Assembly: GCA_004553715.1 (NCBI GenBank)
Contig: SFKP01000006.1
Coordinates: 1 to 61,764 of the forward strand
DNA: 61,764 bases
Source: Clostridiales bacterium
GTDB taxonomy: Bacteria; Bacillota; Clostridia; TANB77; CAG-508
Direction of reading: 5' to 3'
Shown here in pieces: positions 39,727 to 61,764 of this stretch. The translations under genes and the position numbers were made by a program. The notes under the pieces were generated by a model. It had not been told where the DNA came from, searched no databases, and was given only the letters and a program-made list of their open reading frames with translations. Positions within the stretch are counted from its first letter, which is position 1; every line of letters starts with the position of its first letter.

Positions 39727-42700
39727 ATGAGAAAATTTAATACAAAGAAATTAGTTATAACAGGATTGTTAGCATTATTAATTATAATTGAATTATTAGC
39801 ATTAGGTATTTCTAAGGCAGAAAAAACTAAAGAAATAGAACTTAATGTTTCAGATTACGAAGGCAAACTTAAATCTTGTGCACTAAAAATAAATGCATTT
39901 GATAGTGGAGAGAGTGGCTATTATATAGTATTGCCAGAATTTATAGATGCTAAACAGATAGATAAATATATAATAGAAGAAAAAGCAATTATATCTGAGG
40001 AAAATGAAGAAGAAAACATTATAGAGGAAACGAATAAAGCAGAAAACATCGTAAATGAAACAAGTATAAAAGCTACAACAGAAGGAACTAAAACAGAAAA
40101 AGTTCCAGGAGATGAGTTATATATAACACAAAAAGAGCTTGAAAATCAGAATATATCTTTGCAAGCAATATACAAAACTAAAAATGTGGAAAACAATATT
40201 TTATATAATACAAAATTGGAGCAAGTGTTGGAAAATGAAGGAAAAACAATTACTGTCCAAGGTTATATGCCTTTAAATACAACTATGCAGTTAAATGAAA
40301 TTGCTGAAGAAGCATCTAATATATTGAATAAGGTATCTATAGAAAACTTTATGCTACAGCAAACATATAATATTAAATTGATAAATAATGATGAAGAATA
40401 TGTTTCAAATAGCCAAGAGGACATATATAAAATTATAATTTCTGAAATGGACGAAACTAAGGATTACCAAGTATTTCAAATTGTGAAAAATGTAGAAGAT
40501 GTAGCAACAACTACCACTCAGGAAATAAAATCAGAACTAGTAGAGAAAGGATTAAACTTTAATATCCAGAGTTTTGAGCCTTTTGCAATATTTGAAAGTA
40601 ATCTTACAACTGAAATTCAAGAAGAAACTCAAGAAGAAACAAAAGTTGTAGAAAAGGAAATATCAACAAGAGCAATATCAGCCACTACAAAAACATGGGA
40701 TGGAAGTATAGCAACTTCTTTTAGTATTGGAGAGGGAACTAAGACATATCCATATTTAATATCAACAGGTGCGGAACTTGCATATTTAGCAAGCAAAGTA
40801 AATGCTGGGACAACCTATGAAAACGTGTATTTTCAACTTATAAACAGTATTAACTTAAATGGAATAGAATGGACACCAATTGGAAATATTGCTAACTCTT
40901 TTAGAGGGATATTTGATGGAGCAGGATATACAATATCAAATGCAACAATAACAATTGGGACGATTCCTACAGTATTAACTACCTATGGAATTTTTGGAAG
41001 TATTGGTGGAGGAACAACTAGAACTATTGTAGAGAATGTAGAATTTGATAGTATAAATGTGTCTTTAACAGCAACTACAGGTTCAGGAAGTGCTGCTACT
41101 TCAAGTACAACAACCGATAAAGGATATCACATTGGAATTGTTGCAGGAACAATGTATAAAAACTCTTCTATAATAAATGTTATTGCAAAAAATAGCACAA
41201 TCTCAAATACCCAAAGAATAACATTAGCAAATTCTTATTTTAGAGTTGCAATAGGTGGAATATGTGGAATTGCATTAAATACTTCGTCGAGTGAAACAGA
41301 CCCAGGAGCAGGAGCTAGATATGCTATAGAAAATTGTTATTCAGATGTGGATATAGATATATTAATAAGAGATAATAATGGAAATATGCCTGCTTTCGGA
41401 CAATATGCGACAGGTGGAGTAATTCGGTATTATTCTTTCACAACCTGTGTGGCCAACAAACTGTTTATATACAGGTTCAATTATATCAAGGGGATTTATA
41501 GGCCCAATTTTTGCATATTTAAGAAATGCAACTTCATTTACATCAACAAGTAATTATCCAATATTATGGAATGGAAATGATGCCGGGACATTAACAACTA
41601 ATTGCTATTATAGTGCATATTATGTAGGCGAAGATTCAATTAATGCAAACTCATCAGCAAATTCTATAACCTCAGGTACATCTGATTTATATATTAGTGA
41701 AACTGGTATGGAAGCTGTACAAGGTATAAATAAAGGAACATATATAAGTGATATATCAAGTAGACTATCTTCATTTAATAATTATGCAGGGGATAGATAC
41801 ATTAATTGGCAATATTCTGGCGGAACATTTTATTTAGTGCCAAAGTTTGAAACAAGTATTAATAGTACAAATAAACCAACATATACAGCAGTTGTAAATA
41901 GCTCTTATGGCTCACAACAATATACATATAGATGGTATATAAATAATGTGTTAGATGAGAGTATAACAGGAAACTCTATTACAAAAGAGGCTGATGTAGA
42001 AAATAGTTATGTTATTGATGTTTTGGTAAGTGATGGAAATTATTATGCACTTGCAAGTGTCACCATTCCAAGATTAACAATAGAAATAGAGTTTGATATA
42101 GATGAGGCAAATGATAAAGTGACAGGAACAGTGACTAGTGACTATACTATAATTAATCAGGAAAATTATATATTCCAATGGTATACGATTGATGCTGCAG
42201 GAATTTCATTAGAGGAAATAGAAGGAGAAACTTCTAGAGTTTTAGTAAATTTGGAAGATGGTGTTGAATACAAGCTAATTGCAACTAATAAAAACACCAT
42301 GTCAACTGTAGAGGGTAGTTTTATATATGGAACGAGAACCGTAATATATGTAGATTACACAAATGGAAGAGATAATTATAATACAGGTCTTACTCCTCAA
42401 AGTCCAGTAAGTACTCTTAGCGCAGCTTATGGAAAATTAAGCTATACAGGAACTATAAATACAAATATTATTGTAATAATGGGGACTTATTCAAGCTCAT
42501 TTTTAAATAATGCAAGTTCAACAACATATAATAAAAATGTAACATTTACAGGAATATATGATAATGTTAATTATAATGGGGTTTTATATTTTGAAAGATA
42601 TTCATCTACATACCCATACAAATATTTAACAGCAGATACAGGTTTTCAACATTTAACATTAAGAAGCTCATCAAGCAATTTATACTTATACTTGCAAGGC

Positions 42701-45700
42701 TATGATTTAGTAATGGGTGAAGGAATAATAATGACAGGATATGCTTCAGCTGATACGAACCAAGGCTTGATTACTGGAAGTGCGCCAGCATTTCATATTT
42801 TTGCTGGTTGGCTTCAATATAATTATGCAACATTACCAAGAAATAATACAAAAATAGTTATAAAAAGTGGAGCTTATGGAAGAATTGTTTTAGGAGGAAG
42901 TCCAGGAGGAATGGATGTTTCTGCATTGGAGCAGACTACTTCTAGAAACTTTACAGGTTCATCTTTTGATGACATGTTTAATGTGACAGTAGATATCGAT
43001 ATAAAAAATAGTACAAAAGGAAATTATGCTTATGATGTAAATTTATTAGTTGGTGGATCAGCATGTGGAAATACCTATGCAAATATTACTGAAAACATTA
43101 AAGCTGGTTCAATAGGGCGTATTCTAGGAGCAAGCTTAGGGGATACTGATAGGCCAAGCAATTGGGATTATCCAATAAATACTCATATTGGGACAAGTAC
43201 TATAAATGTAACAGGGGGAACAATTAATGAACTTTATGGTGCATGTTTAGGAAGAAATATGAATGCTTTAACAGGGAGTTCATCTCTTATTTGTGATTCA
43301 TATTTTTATGGAGATATTTTTATAAATATAACAGGAGGAACTATTACAGGTAATATCTATGGAGCAGGAGCAGGAGGAGTTACTGGATATCACGAAAATT
43401 CTTCTGATATATATAAAAGTTATGGAAAAGATATAGAAACTAGTGTAAATATAAATATTTCAGGAGGAACTATTGAAGGAGATATTTATGGTGGAGGATA
43501 TGGGTATACAGAATATCTAACGGAAAGTGTTACAGCAAGTGATGCTGGAGCATTATATGGAGATAGCTATATTAGAATAACAAATAGTCCAACGATAAAT
43601 GGAGATATTTATGGAGCAGGTTGTGGATACAATTTTTCTAGTAAGCCTAATATAGCACAAATGATAGGAGAATCTAACATAGAAATTAGTGGCACACCAA
43701 CTATATCAGGAATGATATTTGGCGCAGGTGCAGGAGTTTCTGGATATGCGAATATGGCAAAACTAACAGGAAATTCAAACATAACAAGTGAAGCAAATTT
43801 AATTACGAATATGTATGGCGGAGGAAACATTGCCAAAACAGTTGGAACAACAAATATAAATATAAATAGTGGCACATATACAGGAAGCATATATGGAGGA
43901 GGAGATATAGGAGTTGTTGAAGGAACTTCTTATGTATATATAAATAGTGTAGAAGCAAATAATATATTTGGAGGAGGAAATCAAGCAAGTGTCACAACAA
44001 CAAATATATACAATAAAGGCGGAATTGTATCTAACATATATGGAGGAGGAAACAAAGCAAATGTTAATACAACAAATATATATCTTCAAGGAGGAAAAGC
44101 TTCAAACATATTTGGCGGTTCAAATCAAAGTGGAACGGTAACAAGCAGTAATATTTACGCATCATCTGGAACAGCAACAAACATATATGGGGGCAACAAT
44201 CAAGGAGGAACTACAACTAACTCAAATATAGTAATAAATAACGGAACAATCCAAAATATATATGGAGGAAACAACCAAGGAGGAATTACAAATAATCCAA
44301 ACATTAATATAATAGGAGGAATTATATCAAACATATATGGAGGAGGAAATAGGGCAACCGTACCAACAACCAATGTTCAAATTAGTGGAGGAAATATACA
44401 AAATGTATTTGGCGGAGGAAATGCTGCAAGTGTAGATAATAATACAAATGTAAATATAACAGGTGGCACAATAAACTTAAATATATATGGAGGGGGAAAC
44501 GAAGGGATTGTAAATGGTAATACCAATGTAAAGATAAAAGATGCAGTTATTGGCGGAAGTGCATATGCAGGAGGAAATGGTGTAATGGCTATTGTAAATG
44601 GTAATACAAATATTACAATTTCAGGACGAACTATAATAGGGAATGAGCAAAATGCAGTATCAGCACAAAAAGGCTCTGTATTTGGAGGAGGAAATGCCGC
44701 TGCAACAGGAATAGAAGCTAATAATAATTCAACAAGTACAGTAAATATAGTGGGTGCTACTATTTATGGTAATGTATATGGCGGAGCAAACACTTCTGTT
44801 GTATATGGATATACAGATTTAAATATTGGCCATGATGCAGTGCAAGATAGTACCTTAACATTAGATGATATATATATTAGAGGAACAATCTTTGGTGGAG
44901 GAGAAGCAAATGCTTCAGGTTCTGAAGTATATGATTATTCTTTTATAAGTGTGACACAAGGAATAGATATTAATATTAATGGAAATGGACACACAAAATT
45001 TGAAACAGAAGGAAGTATATTCGGATCTGGAAATGCTTCTAGTACAACAGGAGATAGCACTATTCTAATAAAAAACTATGGTACAAAAGATAATCCATGT
45101 AGAAATATTTCTATACAAAGAGCAACAACAGTTACGATGGATAATAGCTGCCTTGCTTTATTTGGAGCAACAGATAGAACAAATGAATATTCTTCAGTAA
45201 AATTTTCCCTAAGTAGAATAGATGAGCTAAAAATAAAAAATGGTTCAATAATATTTTTGGAATGTGGTGCAAACTTATTAAAAAAATTATCGAGCTTAGT
45301 TGATATAAATGGTAATGAAGAAATTGCGACAGTTACAATAGATGAAACAACAGGTGAAACAACTAAAAATGTAGATAATAGAATTTATTTATATGAAGGT
45401 AAGAATTTTAATGTAGCCTTAGAGGAAAATGTAAATGAAAATGATACATTATGTGGAGATGTAGATGGAATGACATTTTTAGGTTTATACAACAATAGCA
45501 ATAATCCAGCTACAAGTACAGGGTTTTACCATTATAGTTTTGAAAATGGAGACAAAATAACAAATATGGGAACATTTAGGACAAACTCTTATGTAAAAGG
45601 TGCGCATAAAACAGATCATGACATTACTGTAGATGGATTTTATACAAACTATAATGACAAAGATAACGAAGGGTTTATAAAAACAGGATATGTAGGGGTA

Positions 45701-47650
45701 ACACCAGCAGATGATACATATTATATGTGGATAGTTGGTGAAGCGATAAATGTTAGAACTTATCATATAACACTTACTGCATCAAAATATGCAACACTAG
45801 GAACACATGAACTTGTATTAGATGGTTTTTCAATCCCAAATACAAAATTTATATTACAAGGATTTTCATCAGGTTTGAATGAAGACATATCATTAATAGA
45901 TAATAGCCAAATAGAAGCTATTTCTCAAGATGAAGACATAGCAAATACTATGTTTGGGCTTTCAATGAGAAGTGGTAAAAATGGTTGGAGAACAGATAAC
46001 AAAACAAGTTTTTATACTACAAGTGGTGGTACATATAATGGAAATAATTATTATGTGAGTGATAACTCGATAACTACTCCAACACTAGTATTCTGCTTAT
46101 ATCATTCACAGAACTTAAATTTAGAACAGGAACTAGGAGAGGTTACAGTAAGATTTCAAGTATTAGCACCAATAGATGATTTAACAGAGGAAATATCTTA
46201 TATAGATATTATAATTGACATGAACACATTGTTAAATCAAGATAGTTTTTATGAAGCAGCAATTACTCCAGGAGAAGAGTTCGAGCTGTTTACAACAACA
46301 GAAACTAACATAACAGAAAATAGTATGTTTTCAACATATTATTCGCTACTATATAATAACTTTTCAGAAAGTGACTACTATGCAGATTATACAAGCTACA
46401 AACGTGTTTTAGTTTCAAGAGATTCAAATGATTTGCCTTATGTATTTAAAGCAAATACTAAAATTATAATGCTAGACATGGTAACAAACAAACATTACTA
46501 TTATATTGTCACAAGCCAAGACGAAACAAACAATATATATATGTATGAATTGAATAAATTTATAGAAATAGGAAGTATAGATTCAGGATATGATGAAGTG
46601 GCAGCAAGTAATACATATTATAATTCATCACAAGACCTAATATATGAAAACTTTATTTTTCATGTAGATGTAAGCGAAAGCAATATAGCAGAAGAGGTAT
46701 ATAACAATACATTGTTAATAGAATTACAAGATTCAAATGGAGAAACATTAATAGGAGTATTAAATATACAAAGAAATACTATTAAATATAGTATATATAA
46801 AGATAGAAATGCAACTATTGATATTGATATTACATCAGAAGACAAAATATATTTGGGAGATATTATAAACTTAACAGCAACAACAAATTTTACACAAAAT
46901 GTATTAAGTTCAAAGACAATATATGATACAAGATTTTTCAATTCAAAAATGGGAATACAAATAAGCATATTTGACATTAATGGAAATCAGTTAAATAGTG
47001 ATACTTTACTAGGAATAAACTTTGAATATGATGGAGCAATATATTATCCAAGAATAGATGGTACAACCAGAATAAAAATAGCAGATAGAGTATCAAATGT
47101 TTTATCTAAAATAAAAATAAATACAATTAATAATACAAAATTAGCAACAGGTGATTATACGATAAAAGTAGAAACTTTTGGCTCTCCAGATGGTATATAT
47201 TACGGACTAGAAACATCTAGTTATGATGAAACACAAATAACTATTATAAATGGAATATACGGGCTAAAGGCTACAACAGACAATAATTCTAAAATAATAG
47301 ATAAAACTACTGGAAAAACCTTAAATGATAATAACATTATCAATGTAAAACTTGAATACTCTTCAGCATTAAATACTCCTATTATAATGATGGAATTACA
47401 AAGAAGAGATTATACTAGTGAAATTTCTTTAAATTATGAAGCAGTAGATTTAGCAAATTATACTGAGACACAATTAACTTCAGGATATAACCAATATGAG
47501 TATTTAGTAACAGATGCGCCAACAAGTAATAATACGGTACAACTAAACTTAAAAGAAAATTTAGTGACAGGAACCTATAAATTAGTATTTAAACTATATG
47601 ACGGGGAAAACTATATAGGAGCAACTTATGAATATTTTATTGTAAAATAA
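39727..47650 (+). CDS. giant (~2640 aa) secreted GLUG-domain / parallel beta-helix repeat protein, one frameshift near 41420
   Basis: The ORFs 39727-41553 and 41447-47650 overlap. The second frame is already open from 41420 (FGIILSQPVWPTNCLY...), and the tail of the first ORF after ...QYATGGVI looks like out-of-frame sequence. N-terminal signal anchor. GLUG-like region at 40684-41420 (PYLISTGAELAYLA...WTPIG...FRGIFDGAGYTI...GIFG). Dozens of (I/V)(Y/F)GGGN repeats. Confidence 0.8.
43790..44830 (+). repeat. coding array of degenerate ~24-25-codon repeats (NIYGGGNxAxVxTTNIxxxGGxxS)
   Basis: At least 12 consecutive units can be read in the translated ORF. Confidence 0.8.
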
Positions 47651-50749: not shown

Positions 50750-51283
50750 ATGAAAAAAGTAATCTGGAATATATTTATAGTACTATACGCAATAATTGCA
50801 ATATTTGTGACAATATGTCTATTATCTTACAATGAATATAGAATTTCAGAATTTGGAGATTACTCATTAGTAATAATAGATAGCAGAGAATTAGAGCCAG
50901 AATTTGCAAAAGGAGACCTGGTAATCACTGATAGAAGCTATAAAGTAGAAGAAGGACAACAAGTGTTTTTTTATAAAACAAATTTTGGAGAAGTTAGTAT
51001 AAGTGTTGCTGAAATAGCGGAAAGACAAGAATATACAAATGGTGAAGTAACATACGTACTAGAAGGTGACAATATAATTAAAGAAAAAAATATTTTAGGA
51101 GCCGTAGATAAAGTAAAGACAATAAAAAATGCTGGTACAATACTTGGAGTGTTAGAGTCAAAATGGGGCTTTTTAGTATTAATAGTATTGCCTTCTTTAA
51201 TAGCATTTTTATATGAAATAGCTGAATTAATTTCTGATTTAAGAAGTGGTTCAAATAAAAAGGAAAAAAATGAAAAACACTAA
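50750..51283 (+). CDS. SipW-like paralogue lacking the catalytic Ser and His (predicted pseudo-peptidase)
   Basis: TM, then IDSRELEP in place of SGSMEP, VAEIAE in place of THRI, and EGDN retained. C-terminal TM. Confidence 0.7.
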   Translation: MKKVIWNIFIVLYAIIAIFVTICLLSYNEYRISEFGDYSLVIIDSRELEPEFAKGDLVITDRSYKVEEGQQVFFYKTNFGEVSISVAEIAERQEYTNGEVTYVLEGDNIIKEKNILGAVDKVKTIKNAGTILGVLESKWGFLVLIVLPSLIAFLYEIAELISDLRSGSNKKEKNEKH

Positions 51284-51893
51284 AAAAGTATTTATAATAT
51301 TAACTTTATTAATGACAGTATTTACAATATATCAAATAGTAAATACTTATGCACTTTTTGAAAGTAGACTTTCAGGAACTTCTCAAATTCCTGTTGGCAG
51401 GTGGAATATTGATTTAAATGGGAGTGATATTACATCAGGAGTGACGCAAAATTTTTTGATAGATTCATTTAACATTGAACAAAATGAATATATATTGGAA
51501 AATAAAATTGCACCTGGGTTATCGGGATACTTTGAAATTCAAATTCATCCTAAAGATACTCAAGTATCTATAAGGTATGATATAACAATTGATAATTCAA
51601 ATGTAGCTGAACAAAGGATAAAATTAGTATCTGTTACAGAAACAAACAATACTAATAAGATTATAAGAACAGGGCCAAATACATATACAGCAATTATTCC
51701 ATTAGAAAATATAAACACAACATATTTTGATATTGTGAAAACAGCATTTGTTTGGGAAAATAACGAAGAATATAATGAGCAAGATACAGCAATAGGAACT
51801 AAAGATAATCCAAGTATAGCTATACCAATAGCTTTTACAGCTACACAATATACAGGGGAAGAAATAATTGAATATGTAGAGGGAGAAGCATGA
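51270..51893 (+). CDS. TasA/camelysin-like secreted subunit with SipW-cognate-type signal (subfamily 1)
   Basis: MKNTKKVFIILTLLMTVFTIYQIVNTYALFESRLSG...GRWNIDLNG. C-terminal strand IAFTATQ. Overlaps the upstream gene by 14 nt. Confidence 0.65.
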   Translation: MKNTKKVFIILTLLMTVFTIYQIVNTYALFESRLSGTSQIPVGRWNIDLNGSDITSGVTQNFLIDSFNIEQNEYILENKIAPGLSGYFEIQIHPKDTQVSIRYDITIDNSNVAEQRIKLVSVTETNNTNKIIRTGPNTYTAIIPLENINTTYFDIVKTAFVWENNEEYNEQDTAIGTKDNPSIAIPIAFTATQYTGEEIIEYVEGEA

Positions 51894-52429
51894 GCAAAAC
51901 TTTAGAAAAAATATTTTCAAAAATATTAAATGTATTACTTACAATAATACTGTTAGCACTAGCAATTCTCATATATAACTATGTACAGATAACTGTTTTA
52001 AAAAAAGATTATACAAATATATTTGGTTATACTGCTTTTCAAGTTGTAAGTGGAAGTATGGAAGAAACTATAAAAGTAGGAGATATTATAATAGCAAAAT
52101 TAAAATATAATCAACCACTAAAACATGGAGATATTATAGTATTTAAACAAGATGAAAACATTATTACACATCGAATTATAGAAATGGGCGATGGTAAAAT
52201 AATTACAAAAGGAGATGCAAACAATACTACAGATAATCCAATTACTAGAAGTGAAGTAATTGGCAAGGTAATAAAAATTATTCCAAATATTGCAATCTGG
52301 AAAAAGGTTTTTACTTCTCCAAAAGTTATTATATCTGTTATAACAACCATTATTTTCTTTGGGATTGCTTTTTCATTTAAAGAAAAAAACCAATGTAAAG
52401 AAAAAGAGGAAGATAAAGATAATGTTTGA
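51890..52429 (+). CDS. sipW: SipW/Sec11-type signal peptidase I, catalytic residues intact
   Basis: VVSGSMEE, ITHRII, KGDANN. ATGA overlap with the upstream gene. Confidence 0.85.
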   Translation: MSKTLEKIFSKILNVLLTIILLALAILIYNYVQITVLKKDYTNIFGYTAFQVVSGSMEETIKVGDIIIAKLKYNQPLKHGDIIVFKQDENIITHRIIEMGDGKIITKGDANNTTDNPITRSEVIGKVIKIIPNIAIWKKVFTSPKVIISVITTIIFFGIAFSFKEKNQCKEKEEDKDNV

Positions 52430-52994
52430 TAGAAAAAGAATTATTATAATTGTTAAATTCCTAATTACATTACTAACACTAATATTAATATTAATGTTAA
52501 TATGTAGAACTTTGGCAAAATATGAAACAACAGCGACAACAGATGCAAATATACAGGCGGCATTTTATTTGTTAAAAGATGACTATCAAACTATGACTGT
52601 AAATTTGGCAGAAATGCAACCTAGGGATGAAGCATATTCTTATACATTTTCTGTAGCAAATAATGATGGTACCAAAAGGACAGAAACATCTTTAGAGTAT
52701 GATTTACAAATGAGGGCAACAACAAATTTACCATTAAGATATAAACTATATTTAAATGGGATAGAAATTAATATAATTACAAACTCGGAAACCATAATAG
52801 ATGAATATGGAACATATTTTCGAGTTTTTAGTACAGATACGAAGATGTTTGGGCACACAGAGAATGAAACAAATATATATAATTTGGTCATCGAATTCCC
52901 TTTAGAATATAAACAAACAATAGAGTATCAGGATGTTATAGAAGGAATAGAAATAACAGTTAATTCAAGACAAATGATTAATGAAGGGGCATAA
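52422..52994 (+). CDS. secreted subunit with SipW-cognate-type signal (subfamily 2)
   Basis: MFDRKRIIIIVKFLITLLTLILILMLICRTLAKYETTATT. GAGGAAG RBS. 8-nt overlap with sipW. Ends IEITVNSRQ. Confidence 0.6.
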   Translation: MFDRKRIIIIVKFLITLLTLILILMLICRTLAKYETTATTDANIQAAFYLLKDDYQTMTVNLAEMQPRDEAYSYTFSVANNDGTKRTETSLEYDLQMRATTNLPLRYKLYLNGIEINIITNSETIIDEYGTYFRVFSTDTKMFGHTENETNIYNLVIEFPLEYKQTIEYQDVIEGIEITVNSRQMINEGA

Positions 52995-52996
52995 GA

Positions 52997-53932
52997 ATGA
53001 AAGAGGCAAAAAAAAAGAAATTTAGCAAATTTTATACAAAGCAAATATTAATAATAAGCTGTATTTTTATTAATATAATATTTCTTGCTTCCGTTTTTGG
53101 TAGATATGTATCAAATAATGTTAGAGGCTTTTTTGGTAGAACAAAGGAATTCTATTTTTATAGTGATAAATTAGATACAAACAATCCAAATTATCAAATT
53201 GAAAGCTGGTCAGGGGTTGATGATTATACAATTACTATAAATATGCATAGCTATGAAAACAATCTATTAGAAACAGAGTATGATATAGAATATGATATTT
53301 CTTATACAGCATCAGATAACATTATTTGCCAACTAAGTAAAACCCAAGGAATGATAAGTGCTGACACAAATACAGATTATTTTAATCTTACAATTACACC
53401 AAATGCTATTTTAGAAACAGGTGATAAGGTTTTCGTAGAGATAACAGCACATGCAAGTTCTCCTTATGAAAAAACAATAAAAGGAAAATTTACATTAGTA
53501 GTGGGGCAAGAAAAACTAAGTTATGAAATAATTGATTCTGTAAATAGCCCATATTGTGAATTAAATATTACAAATACACTTTCTTATTACATAGTAAGCC
53601 AAGCTTTTGATACATATTTAAGTGGTGATAAAATAACAAGAGATACATATTTAAATTTAACAGATACCAATAAGGCAAAATGCTATTCAAGCATAGTGAC
53701 ACTAACATTTAATCCAAATGATGTTTTAATAGATAATACCAATAATGCTTATGTTAATGCAATATCAACTACACAAACTCAAAAAAATAATTATACATAT
53801 ATAAACGGAATGACTTTTAAAGTAGATGCACTTTCAAGTCAGAGAATAAGATTTTATAAGACAGATGTATCGAAGGACTACACATATCCAAAAAATAACA
53901 ATACACCAATAATAACATTAACAAACATATAA
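52997..53932 (+). CDS. secreted subunit with SipW-cognate-type signal (subfamily 2, larger, 311 aa)
   Basis: KQILIISCIFINIIFLASVFGRYVSNN. Shares an (E)YD(I/L) block with the preceding gene product. Confidence 0.55.
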   Translation: MKEAKKKKFSKFYTKQILIISCIFINIIFLASVFGRYVSNNVRGFFGRTKEFYFYSDKLDTNNPNYQIESWSGVDDYTITINMHSYENNLLETEYDIEYDISYTASDNIICQLSKTQGMISADTNTDYFNLTITPNAILETGDKVFVEITAHASSPYEKTIKGKFTLVVGQEKLSYEIIDSVNSPYCELNITNTLSYYIVSQAFDTYLSGDKITRDTYLNLTDTNKAKCYSSIVTLTFNPNDVLIDNTNNAYVNAISTTQTQKNNYTYINGMTFKVDALSSQRIRFYKTDVSKDYTYPKNNNTPIITLTNI

Positions 53933-53954
53933 CACTATAAAAGGAGAAATATAT

Positions 53955-54938
53955 ATGAACATAATGAATGAATATCTTAAGATAACTGAAAAATATATAA
54001 CAAAATACTTTAAAGTAATATTAGAAAATAGATTTAATAAAAAGATATCTGATGAATTTATAAAAACATATATAGAAGCAAGATATTATGATATGGAAGA
54101 GTCACAAAGCAGAAATGAGCTAAAGAGTAATATACTAAAAAAAATATATAAAAAGGCGGAACTATTGTTAAATGAATTTCCCAAGCAGGAAGTAATTATT
54201 GAGCAAATTAAAAATTTTTACAAGTATATTCTATATTTTGATAATGTAATACATAAAAAAGATACAGAAAAATTAATTAATGATATATATGAAAAGAAAA
54301 AACAAATTACAAATAAAGTAAACGAAGATTTTGAGCAAACTTTAAGAAATATAGTATCAGAATACAAAGCTTCTATACAAGATTTGCTAACAAAACTTGA
54401 AAGTGGTGAATTCAGCCTAGAAATTAAAAAAATTTCAGACGAAAATCGTCTAGAAGAAATAGTACTAAACCATGATATTAAATTCCCAATGATATATAGT
54501 AATGAAGCTATACAGAAAGCTTTTGAAACAGACATTATTAAGGAGGATATGCAAGCTGTAGAATATTATTTAGTAATATATAAAATACTTAAAAATATTA
54601 TAAATGGAGATATGAAAAAGCAATACATCGTAAGTTTTCAAGCAACCATATTTGATAAAAAACAAAAATTAAAAAGAATAATAGAAATAATAAACAATCA
54701 ATTCATACAAGAAAAAATAACAATTAAAGTCAAGTATATGGATTTTATAAAATATAAGAAAGAGTATAGCAACTTAATTCGAAATGGCTTTAAAATAGCT
54801 GTTTTGATAGATGAAGGTTTTGACATATCAAAACTAAAAGAACTTGAAATTTCAAAATATGTATTAATAAATAAAGATTTAAAAATTTATCCAGAAATAA
54901 TAAAAAGTAAACATTCTTTAAATATAATAGGAATGTAA
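53955..54938 (+). CDS. hypothetical cytoplasmic protein; C-terminal half has a degenerate EAL-domain-like pattern
   Basis: QYIVSFQATIFD ... EKITIKVKYMDF ... LIRNGFKIAVLIDEGFDISKLKELEISKYVLINKDL resembles the EAL pattern (vsvNlS / lEiTE / G..ialDDFGtG...L..l..d.lKiD), but the catalytic residues are not conserved. AAGGAGA RBS. Confidence 0.4.
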   Translation: MNIMNEYLKITEKYITKYFKVILENRFNKKISDEFIKTYIEARYYDMEESQSRNELKSNILKKIYKKAELLLNEFPKQEVIIEQIKNFYKYILYFDNVIHKKDTEKLINDIYEKKKQITNKVNEDFEQTLRNIVSEYKASIQDLLTKLESGEFSLEIKKISDENRLEEIVLNHDIKFPMIYSNEAIQKAFETDIIKEDMQAVEYYLVIYKILKNIINGDMKKQYIVSFQATIFDKKQKLKRIIEIINNQFIQEKITIKVKYMDFIKYKKEYSNLIRNGFKIAVLIDEGFDISKLKELEISKYVLINKDLKIYPEIIKSKHSLNIIGM

Positions 54939-54975
54939 AATAAAAATAAGCTTAAGGAACGAGGAGGAAAACTAG

Positions 54976-56502
54976 ATGGAAACATTCACAAGATTTTTAT
55001 ATGAATTCTTGTCACAATTTTTTTCAGGACTAATAACAATCGCAACAGGTTTTGGAAAAGGCATAATGCAATTGTTTAATATAAAGGCATATTCAGAAGT
55101 AATAAGTAAATATAAGGGAGATTTTACCATGCCAGAATGGCTTATGGTAGCAATAGCAATACTTGTTATGATACTTGTATATGGAGCAATAATCTTATTA
55201 ATATACTTTCTTATAAGAAAGTATATTAGGTTTAGAAGAAAGATAGTAGAGCAAGAAACTATGTTAGATGAAATTGCCACACTTAACCATAAAGTAGGAG
55301 AACTAATGATTGAAAAAGATAAAATACTAGCAATGAAGGTGTCACAATTAGGCTTAAAACCAGACGAAAGCGCAGAAGAAGAAAAAGAAATGACAAATAC
55401 AAAAGAAGAAGACAAAAATACAGGAATAAGATTCTCAAAATTGAATGATATCGACGAAGAATATAAAAACTATAAAATTAAGAATTATGGAAATAATTTT
55501 ACTTTACCAGAATTATGTGAAAATTTTAGAAACTTTGCAGCATCAAGATTAAAACTATATTATACAACAAACATGATGCAATTATTTATATCCTCTTTGG
55601 CATCAACAAAACTAGTAATTTTACAAGGTATTTCAGGAACAGGTAAAACATCACTTGCCTATGCATGGGGGAAATTTCTAAAACATGACTCATGTGTTGC
55701 TTCTGTTCAGCCATCTTGGAGAGATAGAACAGAATTATTTGGATATTTCAACGAGTTTACTAAAAAATTCAATGAAACTGAAGTTTTAAAGGAAATGTAT
55801 ATAGCGGGATATACAGATGATATATATACCATTATACTAGACGAGATGAACATCTCACGTGTTGAGTATTATTTTGCAGAAATGCTTTCTATACTGGAGA
55901 TGCCTAATAAAGACGAATGGATTGTAGAGCTTGTACCAAATGTTTGGAAAAATGACCCTAAGAAATTAATGGGTGGTAAGTTAAAAATACCATCTAATAT
56001 GTGGTACATAGGAACAATTAATAACGATGACTCTACATTTATGGTTACAGATAAAGTTTACGATAGAGCAATGCCAATAGATATAAATGATAAAGGACAA
56101 GTATTTGAACCGGTTGATACAGACCCAATGGATATAAACTACACATATTTAGATAAGCTTTTCAAACAAGCGATGGAAGAAAATGCAGTTTCACAAGATA
56201 CTTTAGATAAAATAGAAATAATGGATAATTATGTAATACAGCATTTTAGAATTGCATTTGGTAATCGTATAGTTGCACACATGAAAAAATTCGTACCAGT
56301 ATTTGTTGGCTGTGGTGGAGATGAAATTACAGGTGTAGACTATTTTTTAGCAAGAAAAGTTTTAAGAAAATTTGAGCAATTAAATATATCCTATATAAGA
56401 GATGAGATAGAACCATATATAGAATTTTTAAATAAGACTTTTGGAAAAGATAAAATGAAAGAGTGTATAGAATACTTGCAGAGATTGAAGAAGTTAACTT
56501 AG
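54976..56502 (+). CDS. membrane-anchored McrB-family (AAA_5) AAA+ NTPase
   Basis: TM helix MVAIAILVMILVYGAIILLIYFLI, coiled-coil linker, Walker A LQGISGTGKTS, Walker B region TIILDEMNISRVEYYFAEMLSILE, and IGTINNDDSTFMVTDKVYDRAMPIDI, which parallels McrB iiGTmNtaDrS...D.AlrRRF. Confidence 0.75.
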   Translation: METFTRFLYEFLSQFFSGLITIATGFGKGIMQLFNIKAYSEVISKYKGDFTMPEWLMVAIAILVMILVYGAIILLIYFLIRKYIRFRRKIVEQETMLDEIATLNHKVGELMIEKDKILAMKVSQLGLKPDESAEEEKEMTNTKEEDKNTGIRFSKLNDIDEEYKNYKIKNYGNNFTLPELCENFRNFAASRLKLYYTTNMMQLFISSLASTKLVILQGISGTGKTSLAYAWGKFLKHDSCVASVQPSWRDRTELFGYFNEFTKKFNETEVLKEMYIAGYTDDIYTIILDEMNISRVEYYFAEMLSILEMPNKDEWIVELVPNVWKNDPKKLMGGKLKIPSNMWYIGTINNDDSTFMVTDKVYDRAMPIDINDKGQVFEPVDTDPMDINYTYLDKLFKQAMEENAVSQDTLDKIEIMDNYVIQHFRIAFGNRIVAHMKKFVPVFVGCGGDEITGVDYFLARKVLRKFEQLNISYIRDEIEPYIEFLNKTFGKDKMKECIEYLQRLKKLT

Positions 56503-56556
56503 ATGATAGGTGTTAAAAAAAGCTTTTGTCGTGGTTGGAAGGAAGAATAAAAAGCT

Positions 56557-57651
56557 ATGAAAAGATTAAAAGTAATAAGATTATATCAAAGTGAAGAAAG
56601 TAATCAGAATGAATTTATGAAGAGCATTAATTCAAGTTTAAATGTTAAAACAAATTATCAAAAAGTGACAGAAGATTTGGAATGGATCGATCTTATGGAA
56701 TTAACTATTCCATATATAGGGAATATTTTAAAAAATCCAAACAGATTTATAATTAATGAAGAAGAAATTGTAAAAATAGAGTTAGCAAGAAGAATAACAG
56801 TAGATAGTATAAAACATTTATCTAAAAATACAAATTTTATACAAGATTTTGATCAAAAAACGGGAGATGTAAAACCATCTAAAATACTTAATATAAATAA
56901 AGAAGAAAGTTATGATACGTACGAAAACCGTTTCATATATACTTTAATACAAAACATGAAGTTTTTCATAAGTAAGCGAAAAAAAATACTAGAAGGAAGA
57001 AAAGCAATAAAAGAAAGAAGTAACAAACAGATAGACTATACAGGAATATCAAAAATAGCAAATGAAAACATAAGTATTAAAATAGAATTAACTACTAATA
57101 AGGAAGAAAAATGCACTATATCTGATACAATCGCGAGAATAGAAAGACTAGAGCAACAAATACAAGATTTAACATCTTCGGAAACGTATAAAATAATAGA
57201 TAAAAAGCATATTGCCCTAGTTGTTTCACCGATAAAGAGGACAAATGTCATCCTAAAAAACGTCAATTTTCAATATGCAGTAAAACTTTGGAATTATATG
57301 CAACAGAATATAGATGATAAAACAAAAGAAGTAAAAAGCAGAAGAAATTTTTCTGATGATAAAGAAATGAAAGAATTAGTTGACGAAACATTTTTGCTAG
57401 ATTATTTAATAGTAAATTCATTAGACAAGGGACAAGCTGATACTCTTGAAAAGAAACAGGCAAAACAGCAAATTACTAACAAAGTCTTAGAAAAAATATT
57501 ATATTCAAACGATAATCTTACAGAAGAACAGTTAAAAGATATAATATCAAAAACATATAAAACAATGAAACATAAAAACATGGCAACAATTGCAGAAGTG
57601 CAGAGAGTGTTTAAGGAACACATTGATTATTATTTAAAACAAATAAAATAA
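56557..57651 (+). CDS. McrC N-terminal/DUF2357-like partner protein with no recognisable nuclease domain
   Basis: SYDTYENRFIYTLIQNM block and the later PIKRTNVILKNVNFQYAVKLWNYM block fit my recollection of DUF2357/McrC-like proteins. The C-terminus is a K/E-rich helical tail, and I can see no PD-(D/E)xK motif. Confidence 0.5.
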   Translation: MKRLKVIRLYQSEESNQNEFMKSINSSLNVKTNYQKVTEDLEWIDLMELTIPYIGNILKNPNRFIINEEEIVKIELARRITVDSIKHLSKNTNFIQDFDQKTGDVKPSKILNINKEESYDTYENRFIYTLIQNMKFFISKRKKILEGRKAIKERSNKQIDYTGISKIANENISIKIELTTNKEEKCTISDTIARIERLEQQIQDLTSSETYKIIDKKHIALVVSPIKRTNVILKNVNFQYAVKLWNYMQQNIDDKTKEVKSRRNFSDDKEMKELVDETFLLDYLIVNSLDKGQADTLEKKQAKQQITNKVLEKILYSNDNLTEEQLKDIISKTYKTMKHKNMATIAEVQRVFKEHIDYYLKQIK

Positions 57652-57663
57652 GTTTGACCCAAA

Positions 57664-58263
57664 ATGGAGGAAAATAAAATGTTAGAAAAATTAAAAGAAA
57701 ATAAAGCACTAAAACTAATATATAATATTTTATATACATTACTTGTAGTTTTAGTAGTATTAATATTGATAACAGTTGTTTTACAAAGAGTATCTAACAA
57801 CACTTTAAGTTTAGGTGGTTTTAGAGTATTTAATATAGTCAGTGGAAGTATGCTTCCAAAATATGAAGTAGGGGATGTACTAATATCCAAAACACTAGAA
57901 CCATCAGAGATAAAGCAGGGGGATGATGTGGTATATCAAGGGGCAGAAGGTGATTTTTCTGGAAAAATTGTCACACATCAGGTTATAGAAATAGAAGAAG
58001 AAAATGGGAATTACAAATTTCATACAAAAGGACTTGCAAACACTGGAGAAGATCCTATAGTCAAACAAGAACAAGTAATAGGAAAAGTAATATATAAAAT
58101 GCAAACTTTAAGCTATATTTCAAGACTAGTAAATAACTTGTATTCATTCTACTTTATAATATTTATTCCATTAGTATTACTAATATTTTTAGAGATAAGA
58201 AAAGCAGTTATAGATATAAGAGAAAATAAAGAAGATAAGGAAGATGAAGAAAAAAAGGAATAA
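57664..58263 (+). CDS. SipW/Sec11-type signal peptidase I (Ser and His present, canonical Asp position substituted)
   Basis: IVSGSMLP, VTHQVI, but TKGLANTGED where paralogues have KGDNN. ATG 57679, after GGAGGA, is the likely start. Confidence 0.8.
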   Translation: MEENKMLEKLKENKALKLIYNILYTLLVVLVVLILITVVLQRVSNNTLSLGGFRVFNIVSGSMLPKYEVGDVLISKTLEPSEIKQGDDVVYQGAEGDFSGKIVTHQVIEIEEENGNYKFHTKGLANTGEDPIVKQEQVIGKVIYKMQTLSYISRLVNNLYSFYFIIFIPLVLLIFLEIRKAVIDIRENKEDKEDEEKKE

Positions 58264-58873
58264 GATGAATAAGCAAAGAGATGATATTTTTATAATTAAA
58301 TTATTTAAAAGAATCAAACTAAGAAATCTAATTTTATTAATATTATTGCTTAGTTTTAATTCATATGCCTGGTTTATATATGCAACAAAAGTGTCTACTG
58401 GAATGAGTGCACATATATCTTCTTGGAATGTACATTTTCAGGCAGGGGAAGAAGAAATTAAAACAGAAATAATGCTAGATTTTGATATAATTTATCCGGG
58501 AATGGAAATACAGTCAAAAACCGTAACAGCATATAATACTGGAGAAACTTTGGCAAATTTATCGTATGAAATAAAAACCATAAGAATATTAGACACAACA
58601 TATACAACAAGTGAAACATTGACACAAGAAGAAATACTAAATATAATTGATACCACATGCCCGTTTAACATTGCTTTTGAAATAGATAATTCAAATTTAA
58701 ATTCGACAAATGGAAGTGCAAATTTTACTGCAATAATATCATGGCCAATGGAAGGTAATGATGTATTAGACACAGAGTGGGGGGAATTAGCATACGAATA
58801 TAATAAAAACAATCCAACCAGTCCTAGCATACATATAGAATTAGTAATAAAGGCTATTCAAGCCACACAATAG
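58244..58873 (+). CDS. TasA/camelysin-like secreted subunit (subfamily 1)
   Basis: LILLILLLSFNSYAWFIYATKVSTG...SSWNVHFQAG. Ends IELVIKAIQATQ. Alternative start at ATG 58265. Confidence 0.6.
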   Translation: MKKKRNKMNKQRDDIFIIKLFKRIKLRNLILLILLLSFNSYAWFIYATKVSTGMSAHISSWNVHFQAGEEEIKTEIMLDFDIIYPGMEIQSKTVTAYNTGETLANLSYEIKTIRILDTTYTTSETLTQEEILNIIDTTCPFNIAFEIDNSNLNSTNGSANFTAIISWPMEGNDVLDTEWGELAYEYNKNNPTSPSIHIELVIKAIQATQ

Positions 58874-58882: not shown

Positions 58883-59485
58883 TTATATTGTAGTACTAGT
58901 AGTTTGAGTAAATGATATTGATACATCCAAAAGGGCTTCGTTCGAGCTTTCAAAAGTAGCAGCAGCATCTGCAATATTATTCATACTAGCATTACTAGAA
59001 TCATCCCATAAAATGTACACACGTATTGTTCTAGAGTCAATGCCACTATTATAATATATTGTATCACTTATACCAGTATTACCGTCAAAATCAAGGCGCT
59101 CTTCATTATCAATAGAATAGCCAGAAACTACTAAGTCTGTGACACTACTATCTTCATTTGGTTTAATATTTATATCATAAATAAAAGAAACGTCAGTGTC
59201 TGAAAAATCAAATACAAGATCAAAATAACCTTCTGCTGTAGGAGCAATAACTCCACTAGCAATATGGGAATTACCCGGAAAAACAGGTGAAATAACAGAA
59301 GAAAGTGCAGAATTATTTTTTATTGAAACATCATTAACTTTAATATTCCATCTGGCGATTGGAATACTTGCAATTTGGTTAGCAGAAGTAATATATTTTG
59401 CAAATGTATATACCATAATGCAAAAACATATACAGGCAGAAACGACAGATAAGAATAATAATAACTTTTTAAATAATTTAGACAT
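58883..59485 (-). CDS. TasA/camelysin-like secreted subunit (subfamily 1), encoded on the opposite strand
   Basis: MSKLFKKLLLFLSVVSACICFCIMVYTFAKYITSANQIASIPIARWNIKVND. Ends LLDVSISFTQTTSTTI. Confidence 0.65.
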   Translation of the reverse strand: MSKLFKKLLLFLSVVSACICFCIMVYTFAKYITSANQIASIPIARWNIKVNDVSIKNNSALSSVISPVFPGNSHIASGVIAPTAEGYFDLVFDFSDTDVSFIYDINIKPNEDSSVTDLVVSGYSIDNEERLDFDGNTGISDTIYYNSGIDSRTIRVYILWDDSSNASMNNIADAAATFESSNEALLDVSISFTQTTSTTI

Positions 59486-59568
59486 AGAATCAACCCTTTC
59501 AAAATATGATTAGATTTTATCATACTAAATTATTTAGAGCAATAAAAATAAAGGAAAAAGAAGAAAAA

Positions 59569-60267
59569 ATGTTAAAGGAAAAAGTAAAATTAAATTCAGA
59601 AAAAATTAATATAAGAGAAAGAAGAATAAAAGCACTAAAACTAGGTTTATTAATTAGTTTGCTATTTTTAATAATAATTTATGTAATTTTACGAATTGTA
59701 TATACTCAAGGCGCTTTTACTATTGCTTTAAATCAAAACTTTGCGAAGAAAAGTGGACTAATAATGTATGAAAATGGAGAGATAAAAGAAGGTAGAAGAG
59801 TGCTAGAAGCTGACAAAAAGGAGTTTATGGACAATATATCTATTAATTGGCTACCTAAAGACTTAAACGAACATCCAGGGGGAGCACACAATGGAGATAA
59901 TTACATAGCATATACATTTTTTGTAGAAAATCAAGGTAGCCAAACTACGAACTATTGGTATACAATAATTATAGATGATATAATAAGAGATGTAGATGAA
60001 GCAGTAAGAGTAATGATATATCATAATGGGGCAGAAGAAGTATATGCAAAAATTGGGAAAAATGGGAAAGCAGAAGCAAATACTACACCTTTTTATTCAG
60101 ATAAATATGTATTGATGAGAGTAAGAGAAGATTTTAATGAGGGAGATAGAGATAAGTTTACGATTGTAATATGGATTGAAGGAGATGACCCAGATTGCAT
60201 AGATTATTTGATAGGAGGTCAAATGAAAATGCATATGGAAATAACTGAGGAACATATCGAACAGTAA
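59569..60267 (+). CDS. TasA-like secreted or membrane-anchored subunit (subfamily 3)
   Basis: Basic N-terminus, TM LGLLISLLFLIIIYVILRIVYTQGAFTIAL. C-terminal IVIWIEGDDPDC motif shared with the next gene. Confidence 0.55.
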   Translation: MLKEKVKLNSEKINIRERRIKALKLGLLISLLFLIIIYVILRIVYTQGAFTIALNQNFAKKSGLIMYENGEIKEGRRVLEADKKEFMDNISINWLPKDLNEHPGGAHNGDNYIAYTFFVENQGSQTTNYWYTIIIDDIIRDVDEAVRVMIYHNGAEEVYAKIGKNGKAEANTTPFYSDKYVLMRVREDFNEGDRDKFTIVIWIEGDDPDCIDYLIGGQMKMHMEITEEHIEQ

Positions 60268-60327: not shown

Positions 60328-60356
60328 TTGACATTATTTTTCCAAAGATGTAATAT
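60328..60356 (+). promoter_or_regulatory. strong sigma-A promoter (consensus -35, extended -10) with upstream palindrome
   Basis: TTGACA (60328-60333), 17 nt ending in TG, TAATAT (60351-60356). Perfect palindrome TACATTTTTAAAATGTA (60311-60327) abuts the -35. ATTACAAAT direct repeats lie upstream. Confidence 0.65.
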
Positions 60357-60393
60357 TGAGTTATCCAAAAAAATAAAAGAAAGGAAGAATAAT

Positions 60394-61410
60394 ATGAAAA
60401 CAAGAAAAACAAAAAGACATAGCGCGAGAGCAACTTTATTATTGTTATTACTTTTTTCAGTAATATTACTATCATCATCTTATGCATGGTTTACAGCAAA
60501 CCAAACAGTTACAATTAGCCAACTAGAAGTTAATGTAGCAGCACAAGGAGGTTTACAAATTTCAGCAGATGGAAGTAAATGGTCTGCTTTAGTAAACAAA
60601 TCAGACTTAGTGACAGCAGCTAGTACATATAGTGATTTAATAAATCAATTCCCATCAGCTTTTGAAGCTGTATCAACAGCTGGAAATGTAACAGATGGTA
60701 AAATGGATATGTTCGCAGGAACTGTTTTAGCAGATGAAAATACAGGTATTTATGAATTAACAGCCGAAAAACAAACAGAGGTAACAGGCACAACTGGTAA
60801 ATTTATAGCTTTTGACATTTTCTTTAAAGTTGAGAAAGCAACAAATATAGAATTAACATCTAAGTCAGGGGTTAAATTAAAATCAGGTTCAACAAGCCAA
60901 GGAATTCAAAATGCAGCAAGAGTAGCTTTTTTAGTTCAAGGAACCAAGCCAGATGGAACAGCTTTGTCAACTATACAAAAACAAAATGGAGCAACAACAG
61001 AAAGTGGGAGATATATTTGGGAGCCAAATTATGATGTTCATACAGCAGCTGCAACACAAGCGGCTTTAGGAACTTATGGTTTAACAATTAGTGAAACTGG
61101 CGAAGAGAGAATATCTTATGATGGTGTTAAAGCAACAATTACAGATGGTATTGCTTTAGCAGATGCTAAAGCAACTGGAGCTAACACAGCATATTTTGCA
61201 ACAACTCCAATCGCATATTCAACAACTGCAGCATTTGGAACAAATGTTACAGACGCACAAGCTATATTCCAATTACCAGCAGGAATAACAAAAGTGAGAG
61301 TATATATGTGGATAGAAGGGCAAGATGTAGATTGTGAAAACAATGCCTCAGGTGCAGATATTACATTTGATATGCAAATAAAAAGATCAGCAACACAACC
61401 AAGTGCTTAA
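60394..61410 (+). CDS. TasA-like secreted subunit (subfamily 3), candidate major subunit
   Basis: [50 protein letters not shown]. Ala/Gly/Thr-rich composition unlike its neighbours. VYMWIEGQDVDC motif. Own promoter and terminator. Confidence 0.7.
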   Translation: MKTRKTKRHSARATLLLLLLFSVILLSSSYAWFTANQTVTISQLEVNVAAQGGLQISADGSKWSALVNKSDLVTAASTYSDLINQFPSAFEAVSTAGNVTDGKMDMFAGTVLADENTGIYELTAEKQTEVTGTTGKFIAFDIFFKVEKATNIELTSKSGVKLKSGSTSQGIQNAARVAFLVQGTKPDGTALSTIQKQNGATTESGRYIWEPNYDVHTAAATQAALGTYGLTISETGEERISYDGVKATITDGIALADAKATGANTAYFATTPIAYSTTAAFGTNVTDAQAIFQLPAGITKVRVYMWIEGQDVDCENNASGADITFDMQIKRSATQPSA

Positions 61411-61462: not shown

Positions 61463-61649
61463 AATATGATAATAATTCTTTAAGATAAAAATAAATAATG
61501 AATATTTGTACTCGCTTTGTACATAATTATTTAGGATTTCATTTATACCCTTTATGCAAAAAAATATGACCACTTATCTCAAATTACAACGTTAGTATAA
61601 ACTTTTAGTAGGGAAATCTTAGAAAAAAATGTTAAAGCAATAGAAAAAA

Positions 61650-61764
61650 CTATTGCTTTTTTATTTTTGGTTTTGAAATTAAAGATGCTATATATCCAAA
61701 GAATACAGCTGCAGCGATACCTCTTGCAGCAGCTGCAGTTCCTCCTGTAAAGGCACCAATAAAA
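61650..61764 (-). CDS. 3-prime end of a small hydrophobic protein gene running off the window (partial)
   Basis: The reverse strand reads ...FIGAFTGGTAAAARGIAAAVFFGYIASLISKPKIKKQ*. It is only 37 codons, so support is weak. Confidence 0.3.
   Translation of the reverse strand, partial: FIGAFTGGTAAAARGIAAAVFFGYIASLISKPKIKKQ

Follow-up and report, generated by a model that had tools for sequence, protein, structure and literature searches.

Among type IV restriction systems, McrBC is the textbook case. In the structural work of Nirwan et al. (2019) and Niu et al. (2020), as recounted in PMC11090510, McrB is hexameric, and McrC reaches into the ring with its stalk, by which GTP hydrolysis is stimulated. 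The same publication (Bell et al., eLife 2024; PMC11090510) gives NxD followed by D or E as the variant that defines the CoCoNuT-related branch of McrB GTPases, and names, in one paragraph, the class CoCoPALM, in which a transmembrane (TM) segment and a coiled-coil are fused to an NxD GTPase, signal peptidases are neighbours and a link to pilus assembly is proposed; its analysis is deferred to a future paper. Described herein is a gene pair, A and C, within a 61,764 nt stretch of DNA from a Clostridiales bacterium (contig SFKP01000006.1 of assembly GCA_004553715.1, positions 1 to 61,764; hereafter the window). The pair is a member of CoCoPALM, a class named in 2024 and never studied experimentally, and, at a probability that we place near 65 %, constitutes an McrBC derivative that has become, on the cytoplasmic face, an obligatory part of a surface-fibre gene cluster dependent on SipW.

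54976..56502, + strand: A, predicted CoCoPALM-type McrB-like AAA+ GTPase (open reading frame (ORF) of 508 aa)
56557..57651, + strand: C, DUF2357 (McrC N-terminal domain) partner (ORF of 364 aa; Pfam)

Beyond the 2024 paper and its preprint, no later publication using the term CoCoPALM was found, nor was any paper on DUF2357 in combination with SipW, or on PDC-M26. The hypothesis of a first-pass annotation of this DNA, that a membrane-tethered ring enzyme has been co-opted for secretion or assembly of fibre subunits, is that of PMC11090510, and is therefore already published. In common with the described class, the window encodes an NxD McrB-like GTPase with an N-terminal TM segment and a putative coil, a DUF2357 partner that may carry helical or coiled-coil additions, and signal peptidases as neighbours; no feature contradicts the published description, whilst the coil of A is predicted to be cytoplasmic, and inverted relative to that of FtsB. 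Not contained in the CoCoPALM text are gene H and the linkage to EAL/GGDEF genes, the occurrence of pseudo-SipW paralogues, the constancy of the order in which the subunit genes lie, and the cytoplasmic orientation of the coil.

Predicted architecture of the AAA+ protein A

Both ORFs lie exactly where the first-pass annotation had placed them, and all of the motifs that it quoted were found, which for A are LQGISGTGKTS (residues 216-226), ILDEMNISRVEYYFAEMLSILE (residues 287-308) and IGTINNDDSTFMVTDKVYDRAMPIDI (residues 345-370). The protein begins with a conserved segment of only moderate hydrophobicity (residues 1-50), followed by a TM helix (residues ~55-80, nt ~55138-55215), the stop-transfer stretch RKYIRFRRK, a heptad or coiled-coil region (residues ~88-125), an acidic linker, and the AAA+ core and lid (residues ~150-508). 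The TM helix is the single strong hydrophobic segment (Kyte-Doolittle 3.0), and six basic residues occur within the ten positions that follow it, so that, by the positive-inside rule, the coiled-coil and the ring domain are predicted to be cytoplasmic. The N-terminus (residues 1-50) would then be outside the cell or re-entrant. The combined TM and coil unit (residues 55-125, nt 55138-55350) has an N-out/C-in orientation by this prediction, whereas the coil of FtsB/FtsL is extracytoplasmic; a search for homology of the A N-terminus to these proteins gave only a non-significant FtsL match (E = 0.19), and the likeness of this segment to FtsB/FtsL appears to be architectural at most.

Residue invariance was scored over 27 homologues of A. 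In this set the Walker A motif G218-S226 (GISGTGKTS), the Walker B residues D289-E290 (ILDEMN), the sensor-1 residue N349, D351 and R364 are all invariant, as is Asn104 within the heptad region of ~40 residues. Residues 203-375 are almost identical throughout, with the core near 100 % whilst the whole proteins are 74-88 % identical. The sequence NNDDS of the window protein reads N-x-D-(D/E)-S over 150 representatives of the A family (taken after clustering at 50 %), with the Asp at the +2 position constant. E. coli McrB was the only AAA+ sequence match of A in the PDB, at E = 2e-4 with the single sequence (residues 159-366) and 2e-3 with a profile of the 27 sequences. The PADLOC model PDC-M26A also matches A (E = 7e-32), in the core only (residues 193-316, i.e. 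124 residues, aligned to profile positions 314-438 of 724); neither C nor the neighbouring genes gave a PDC-M26 match.

The first-pass annotation had described a TM helix and coiled-coil before a clear McrB-family AAA_5 core. The McrB likeness, the membrane anchor and the heptads were recovered, but the clear AAA_5 domain was not, as Pfam finds none in A at E ≤ 0.1. Relatives of A do match AAA_5, and the McrB assignment consequently rests on these, on the PDB matches, on the PADLOC core match and on the motifs. Judged by sequence, A belongs to the NxD clade of McrB-type AAA+ proteins with its NTPase motifs intact, and would be expected, from family and clade, to be a GTPase and not a generic ATPase; the ring ATPase proposed earlier was probably not correct as to the nucleotide. 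It had also been claimed that A has no DNA-binding N-domain. In agreement with this, residues 1-150 yielded no match to a DNA- or modified-base-binding domain, and comprise only the hydrophobic segment, the TM helix, the heptads and the acidic linker.

A DUF2357 partner without a detectable nuclease

Protein C passes the Pfam model for DUF2357 (PF09823) with E = 2.4e-12 and 47.1 bits, against a curated gathering cut-off of 23.3, and contains the YDTYENRFIYTLI block (residues 119-131), so that its description as a partner with an McrC-like/DUF2357 domain stands. In McrC, it is this domain that enters the McrB hexamer and enhances its hydrolysis of GTP. An AlphaFold2 (AF2) model, with a pLDDT (predicted local distance difference test) score of 68, shows a helical bundle with a low-confidence loop (residues 86-116) and a long inserted β-hairpin (residues 153-184). 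The loop bears an invariant PSKILN..KEE.Y.TYEN block. Beyond residue 188 the model contains a single β-strand, the remainder being helical, and the tail (residues 269-364) is helical and K/E-rich, with pLDDT values of 40-60 at residues 290-345.

No PD-(D/E)xK nuclease was found in C by Pfam, PDB profile search, AF2 or Foldseek, and the protein is, as far as these four approaches can show, nuclease-less, as had been supposed. Its C-terminal half has no Pfam match at E ≤ 1, and no invariant acidic residue or E/D-x-K motif; against the PDB, neither the single-sequence nor the profile search gave a match to C. A match of the C tail to an MshE-type cyclic-di-GMP (c-di-GMP)-binding motif (NF053729, E = 0.051) was seen in 1 of 32 family members, and was rejected as chance.

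Set beside E. coli McrBC (type IV restriction; 6UT6, 7VSR, 6HZ4), the pair has the same AAA+ core with Nx(x)D and a DUF2357 partner immediately downstream, and by homology the same geometry of hexamer and plug would be expected. It differs in that A carries a TM helix and coil in place of the DNA-binding N-domain, and NxD instead of NxxD, in that C is without PD-(D/E)xK, and in its location, which is a putative secretion/fibre operon and not a restriction-modification (RM) or defence island. The closest soluble relatives are the CoCoNuT proteins (CnuB/CnuC, with or without CnuH and CnuE), which fall within the same NxD clade, have coils on both proteins, and often possess partners without an active nuclease. 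These, however, are soluble GTPases with coils of 300-450 residues, as opposed to the short heptad region of A, and in every case have HEPN or other nucleases, or else UPF1-like helicases, as companions, whereas family searches revealed no HEPN, helicase, nuclease or toxin gene in the window cluster.

Conservation of the pair and its surroundings

A profile search with the A family over 1.84 billion representatives returned 8535 matches at E ≤ 1e-3, with 847 at E ≤ 1e-30. Close homologues of A number more than 8000, and relatives are present in at least 566 species-level genomes, the carriers all being uncultured metagenome-assembled genomes (MAGs) labelled Clostridia, Bacilli, 'Clostridium sp. 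CAG:567/609/914' or similar, some with chromosomes of 1.2-1.5 Mb. For the lineage of the window, the 80 best loci from species-level genomes were compared, with each gene scored at its expected offset and the testable loci used as denominators. The block T3-H-A-C-SipW-T4, in which T3 and T4 are candidate secreted subunits and the SipW-type signal peptidase is S5, is intact at every testable locus (T3 69/69, H 72/72, C 77/77, S5 76/76, T4 72/72). The outer genes of the cluster are nearly as constant (T5 62/69, T6 59/64, T7 55/60), and those beyond it vary by genome, with Lon and an acetyltransferase in one genome versus HisRS and ScpB in another, and Fer4 and DUF3800 in one versus Veg, SipL and YunB in a different one. 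Of all genes of the cluster, A evolves most slowly, its median identity being 73 %, as compared with 34 % (H), 48 % (C) and 41-55 % (subunits). Phage and plasmid collections contained no full-length homologue of A; the matches obtained there were confined to the AAA+ core, with identities of ≤39 %. This pattern of conservation fits a core structural or housekeeping machine; it fits neither a defence gene that moves between genomes nor a decaying remnant.

The pair had been placed mid-operon with gaps of 30-50 nt; the position is upheld, but the gaps measure 37 nt (H-A), 54 nt (A-C) and 12 nt (C-S5). No terminator-like site is present on the + strand within 50750-58873, and a terminator-like hairpin occurs at 61634-61659, after T7. 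The flanking of the pair by secreted-subunit genes and sipW was likewise recovered, with TIGR02228 matches on either side (E = 1e-25 and 3e-27) and N-terminal signal anchors in the candidate subunits.

A divergent lineage is represented by 60 metagenome loci, reached via P0302, a relative with one TM helix that is 49 % identical to A. The gene order here is [GGDEF] - EAL - T6 - T7 - SipW - A - C - SipW - [GGDEF-EAL], with SipW directly upstream of A at 46/46 loci, C right after A at 41/45, and SipW after C at 26/29; homologues of T6 lie upstream of the first SipW. A and C are thus co-inherited with SipW and with signal-anchored subunit genes in two divergent lineages. The co-occurrence with sipW/tasA-like genes envisaged by the first-pass annotation therefore holds for SipW, found beside the pair in both lineages, but not for TasA, to which sequence searches revealed no homology of the subunits, and the pair is not confined to defence islands, given that SipW is adjacent at every testable locus.

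Four architectures are evident in the wider A family: proteins with one TM helix, which have the same N-terminus and ~500 aa; those with two; those with four or five (560-700 aa); and soluble proteins (700-870 aa) with 300-450 residues of K/E-rich coiled-coil. One soluble relative (L089) resides in a CoCoNuT-like operon with UPF1-type helicases, and a relative with five TM helices forms a lone pair amid metabolic genes. At a further locus (L092:4475-17554), a relative with two TM helices is tandemly duplicated, firstly as AAA+/DUF2357, and then as AAA+ with a 669-aa YDG-domain protein and no DUF2357 partner. This tandem is directly upstream of a YDG-domain surface protein of >1970 aa, and the genes called over these 17.5 kb include no SipW. 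McrBC-like pairs with a membrane anchor may serve other surface proteins too. A 40 %-identical relative (L094:721-8267) retains the order H-like/A/C-like directly downstream of phage-type DUF859 and Phage_holin_1 genes, on a contig too short to show the genes beyond; several other distant relatives likewise lie on short contigs.

Gene H and a possible link to cyclic-di-GMP

53955..54938, + strand: H, cytoplasmic, with a helical bundle (residues 1-146) and a degenerate EAL-like α/β domain (residues ~150-327) (327 aa; AF2, Foldseek)

In the lineage of the window, H is always directly upstream of A. Its AF2 model (pLDDT 90.8, predicted template modelling score 0.87) retrieves more than 40 EAL-domain structures in Foldseek, Bd1971, FimX and MorA among them, at a probability of 1.0 and a best E-value of 6e-4. 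H itself has no significant Pfam match; weak Pfam EAL matches occur in 6 of 38 members of its family, EAL being the only family to recur. The canonical catalytic motifs (EAL, DDFGTG, EGVE) are unrecognisable in H, which, going by its modelled fold, is probably EAL-like and non-catalytic.

Genes of c-di-GMP metabolism flank the cluster in the divergent loci, where an EAL gene was present in 19 of the 34 loci of ≥9 kb, and EAL, GGDEF-EAL and GGDEF-HD proteins were confirmed by Pfam. These take the form of a small EAL protein that stands alone, a GGDEF-EAL protein of large size and, on occasion, GGDEF-HD proteins (L100, L111, L113, L116, L118, L130 and others; examples are L100:4459-5280, L100:13383-15704 and L100:2021-3790), which suggests c-di-GMP control of A-C systems in this lineage. 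Taken together, the EAL-like fold of H and the EAL/GGDEF genes of the second lineage make a c-di-GMP link of the system a reasonable, if unproven, lead.

FimX is a degenerate c-di-GMP receptor that controls a pilus ATPase, and its EAL structures rank with the best that Foldseek retrieved for the modelled H. The c-di-GMP-gated pilus ATPases (FimX-PilZ-PilB, MshE) resemble the arrangement predicted here in pairing a degenerate EAL receptor with an NTPase hexamer located where a surface filament has its base. They differ in that their NTPase is PilB/GspE, whilst that of the window is a McrB-type AAA+ protein, and in that the window system would rely on Sec and SipW with no prepilin peptidase.

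Proposed function and alternative explanations

For the A-C pair as a component of a SipW-dependent fibre cluster, the following course may be envisaged. An McrBC ancestor would have lost its DNA-reading N-domain and its nuclease, leaving a module that does no DNA restriction. A would form a hexameric GTPase ring, tethered beneath the membrane by six TM/coiled-coil stalks, and C would plug this ring as an activator or adaptor, with its stalk stimulating GTP hydrolysis via the Asp of NxD. Hydrolysis could then act as a motor or checkpoint, by which SipW cleavage and the release of anchored subunits are coupled to polymerisation of the fibre, and we infer a role of this kind for the GTPase in fibre assembly. 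Likely contacts would be made through the extracytoplasmic/TM segment of A, which is conserved, and through the charged tails that SipW and pseudo-SipW proteins extend into the cytoplasm, as docking sites. H might supply a nucleotide-signal input, giving cyclic-dinucleotide control by analogy with other c-di-GMP-gated pilus ATPases.

More tentatively, and as a possibility that we would rate well short of even, A, C and H together could be the engine of an as yet unrecognised class of filament-assembly machine in monoderms, in which an EAL-gated GTPase ring, tethered beneath the membrane and plugged by a McrC homologue devoid of nuclease, hands Sec-inserted, SipW-cleaved subunits to the fibre. 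If true, NTP-driven pilus biogenesis would come in a third kind, beside the ATPases of type IV pili and of type II secretion, and this would also be a clear case of a restriction enzyme exapted for cell-surface morphogenesis. CoCoPALM as such would be the first branch of the McrBC family to operate outside nucleic-acid defence, in a surface-fibre apparatus. Its carriers are mostly uncultured, small-genome Firmicutes of the gut and rumen, and from its abundance (>8000 homologues, ≥566 species-level genomes) the system probably builds a surface structure that is a major one in the gut microbiota and has yet to be seen. H, the EAL/GGDEF neighbours, the inactive SipW proteins and the strict SipW-A-C-SipW order render the published hypothesis directly testable, and point to a c-di-GMP-controlled, GTP-dependent assembly of fibres.

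Several considerations weigh against this assignment. To our knowledge, every McrB relative whose function has been tested acts in restriction or defence, and we know of no need for such a GTPase in the TasA-type fibres of Bacillus or for BsaA of C. perfringens; Sec and SipW are, in principle, enough for export. Some membrane-anchored relatives with two or five TM helices are without SipW neighbours, and both sets of loci consist of the top-scoring relatives of a seed, which biases them towards conserved context. On current sequence comparisons, the T proteins are not demonstrable as homologues of TasA, nor as fibre-forming. A Foldseek search of the PDB with the moderate C model had no match at E < 1e-3, and McrC was not retrieved, the non-significant top rows being mostly TolC-type outer-membrane channels. 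As for H, its homology to EAL domains is structural only, being seen in the model; alignment of the H family by hhalign to genuine small EAL proteins of the second lineage was not significant (probability 1.5 %), with a sensible strand register. Finally, no GGDEF motif was detected in the 1.65 Mb made up of the window and related loci of its lineage, a negative that says little given that the sampled loci all span the same region.

A different reading of the same components is that ring, plug and EAL-like protein perform no mechanical work, but act as a regulatory GTPase switch that senses a nucleotide and controls SipW activity or expression of the operon, much as the cytoplasmic tail of SipW acts in biofilm signalling in B. 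subtilis. The recurrence of EAL-like and EAL/GGDEF genes in the cluster is in keeping with this, as is the low, partner-stimulated GTPase activity of McrB (PMC11090510), and the charged tails of the SipW proteins, two of which are catalytically dead, would suit a scaffold or signalling role. Nonetheless, the whole AAA+ domain and the N-terminal/TM segment are conserved to an extreme degree, as would suit a structural machine that makes numerous contacts, and no DNA-binding or transcription-factor domain was detected in A, C or H. AAA+ rings are, moreover, usually remodellers of substrates, and a pure switch is in our judgement unlikely.

The kinship of A with CoCoNuT-type operons, in which its closest soluble relatives are found, raises the question of whether the pair is instead a defence or abortive-infection sensor stationed on the fibre locus, guarding the pilus or fibre (a likely phage receptor) or sensing perturbation of the envelope, and responding via an effector encoded elsewhere or via the protein with the EAL-like phosphodiesterase fold. 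The match of the A core to the PADLOC defence-candidate model PDC-M26A (E = 7e-32), one distant relative adjoining a phage holin gene, and a type I RM methylase 9 kb off in one genome can be read in this way. The partner, however, has no PADLOC match, the cluster contains no nuclease, HEPN, helicase or toxin, and its flanks are housekeeping and sporulation genes. No full-length protein of the A-C pair occurs in phage or plasmid records, and a fixed, species-wide synteny with A as the most conserved gene is the opposite of what patchy, fast-evolving defence genes display, making a sensor of this kind decidedly improbable. That the pair is a functionless, decayed remnant of a restriction system within the operon, the decayed defence module offered as an alternative by the first-pass annotation, would account for the loss of both DNA-binding domain and nuclease, but is effectively refuted by the conservation data, with at least 77 species possessing intact ORFs, every catalytic motif invariant, more than 8000 homologues, a core ~100 % identical among proteins that are 74-88 % identical, A the best-conserved gene of its cluster, and a gene order that recurs in a lineage ~49 % identical.

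SipW paralogues

Around the A-C pair, the cluster comprises five SipW-type peptidases, seven small anchored proteins, the giant repeat protein G0, and the three cytoplasmic proteins H, A and C. The peptidases are as follows.

47706-48290, + strand: S1, active-type SipW (TIGR02228 E = 1e-29; Ser and His)
48265-48813, + strand: S2, pseudo-SipW (TIGR02228 E = 4e-15; Ser replaced by Ala, His by Arg)
50750..51283, + strand: S3, SipW-like pseudo-peptidase with which the operon begins (TIGR02228 match below cut-off, E = 4e-7; neither Ser nor His)
51890..52429, + strand: S4, SipW-type signal peptidase I (TIGR02228 E = 1.2e-25; catalytic Ser and His in the alignment)
57664..58263, + strand: S5, SipW-type (archaeal/ER-type) signal peptidase I (TIGR02228 E = 3e-27; Ser and His, in SGSM and THQ)

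S1, S2, S4 and S5 score above the TIGR02228 cut-off, and the catalytic Ser and His are kept in S1, S4 and S5. Both residues are missing from S2 and S3, yet these retain both TM helices and the charged tail, and are likely to be pseudo-peptidases with a scaffold or chaperone role, as far as their residues indicate.

The nearest described counterparts of this part of the cluster are tapA-sipW-tasA of B. subtilis and sipW-bsaA of C. perfringens, which likewise combine a SipW-type peptidase with small secreted proteins whose signals end in A-x-(F/Y/W)-type motifs. Neither of these has an NTPase, whereas the window encodes five SipW proteins (two inactive) and seven candidate subunits, in addition to H, A and C. 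A precedent for the NTP-dependent export of such proteins is nevertheless provided by BsaA, the export of which has been linked to a type IV pilus-like system (10.1101/2024.11.04.621531).

Candidate subunits and other features of the cluster

51246..51893, + strand: T1, secreted subunit candidate with a TYALF motif (signal anchor; cross-matches T5)
52359..52994, + strand: T2, secreted subunit candidate (signal anchor; weak TapA-like TIGR04087 match, E = 1.7e-4, below cut-off)
52997..53932, + strand: T3, secreted subunit candidate of 311 aa, in the invariant core (signal anchor)
58244..58873, + strand: T4, secreted subunit candidate with a SYAWF motif (signal anchor)
58883..59485, - strand: T5, secreted subunit candidate with a TFAKY motif (family alignment)
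59506..60267, + strand: T6, membrane-anchored or secreted protein of 253 aa (40 % identity to L095)
60328..61410, + strand: T7, the largest subunit candidate, with the signal motif SSYA|WFT and a conserved W.EGQD.DC block (family alignment)
41447..47650, + strand: G0, giant repeat protein of ~2000 aa with GGxN-type repeats (ORF; directly followed by S1/S2)

All seven T proteins have a K/R-rich N-terminus and one hydrophobic segment that ends in an A-x-(F/Y/W)-like motif; for T7, the ATG at 60394 is the likely start. No homology of the subunits to TasA, CalY (Peptidase_M73) or camelysin was found in Pfam or NCBIfam, and profile searches of the PDB were negative; in the architecture of their signal peptides, the proteins are in keeping with a matrix-fibre operon of the TasA/SipW type. 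T1 and T5 are paralogous, as they cross-match by tblastn and align as one family, of which 12 of 40 members show weak Pfam DUF5024 matches. T5 is the sole core gene on the opposite strand, and this orientation is kept in 62 of 69 genomes.

The giant protein G0 has no Pfam or NCBIfam match. In related genomes it is found either ~10 kb upstream or ~10 kb downstream of A, and hence accompanies the cluster; G0 could be an adhesin at the tip, or else a large component of the fibre. Between G0 with its S1/S2 genes and the start of the operon, some 800 bp separating a gene labelled R from S3 are missing from related genomes, with R at an offset of ~-6.1 kb here versus ~-5.3 kb. Short ORF fragments within this stretch, at 49877-50481 (+ strand), the first of which has a CYTH-domain match (E = 4e-4), look like the remnant of a CYTH pseudogene.

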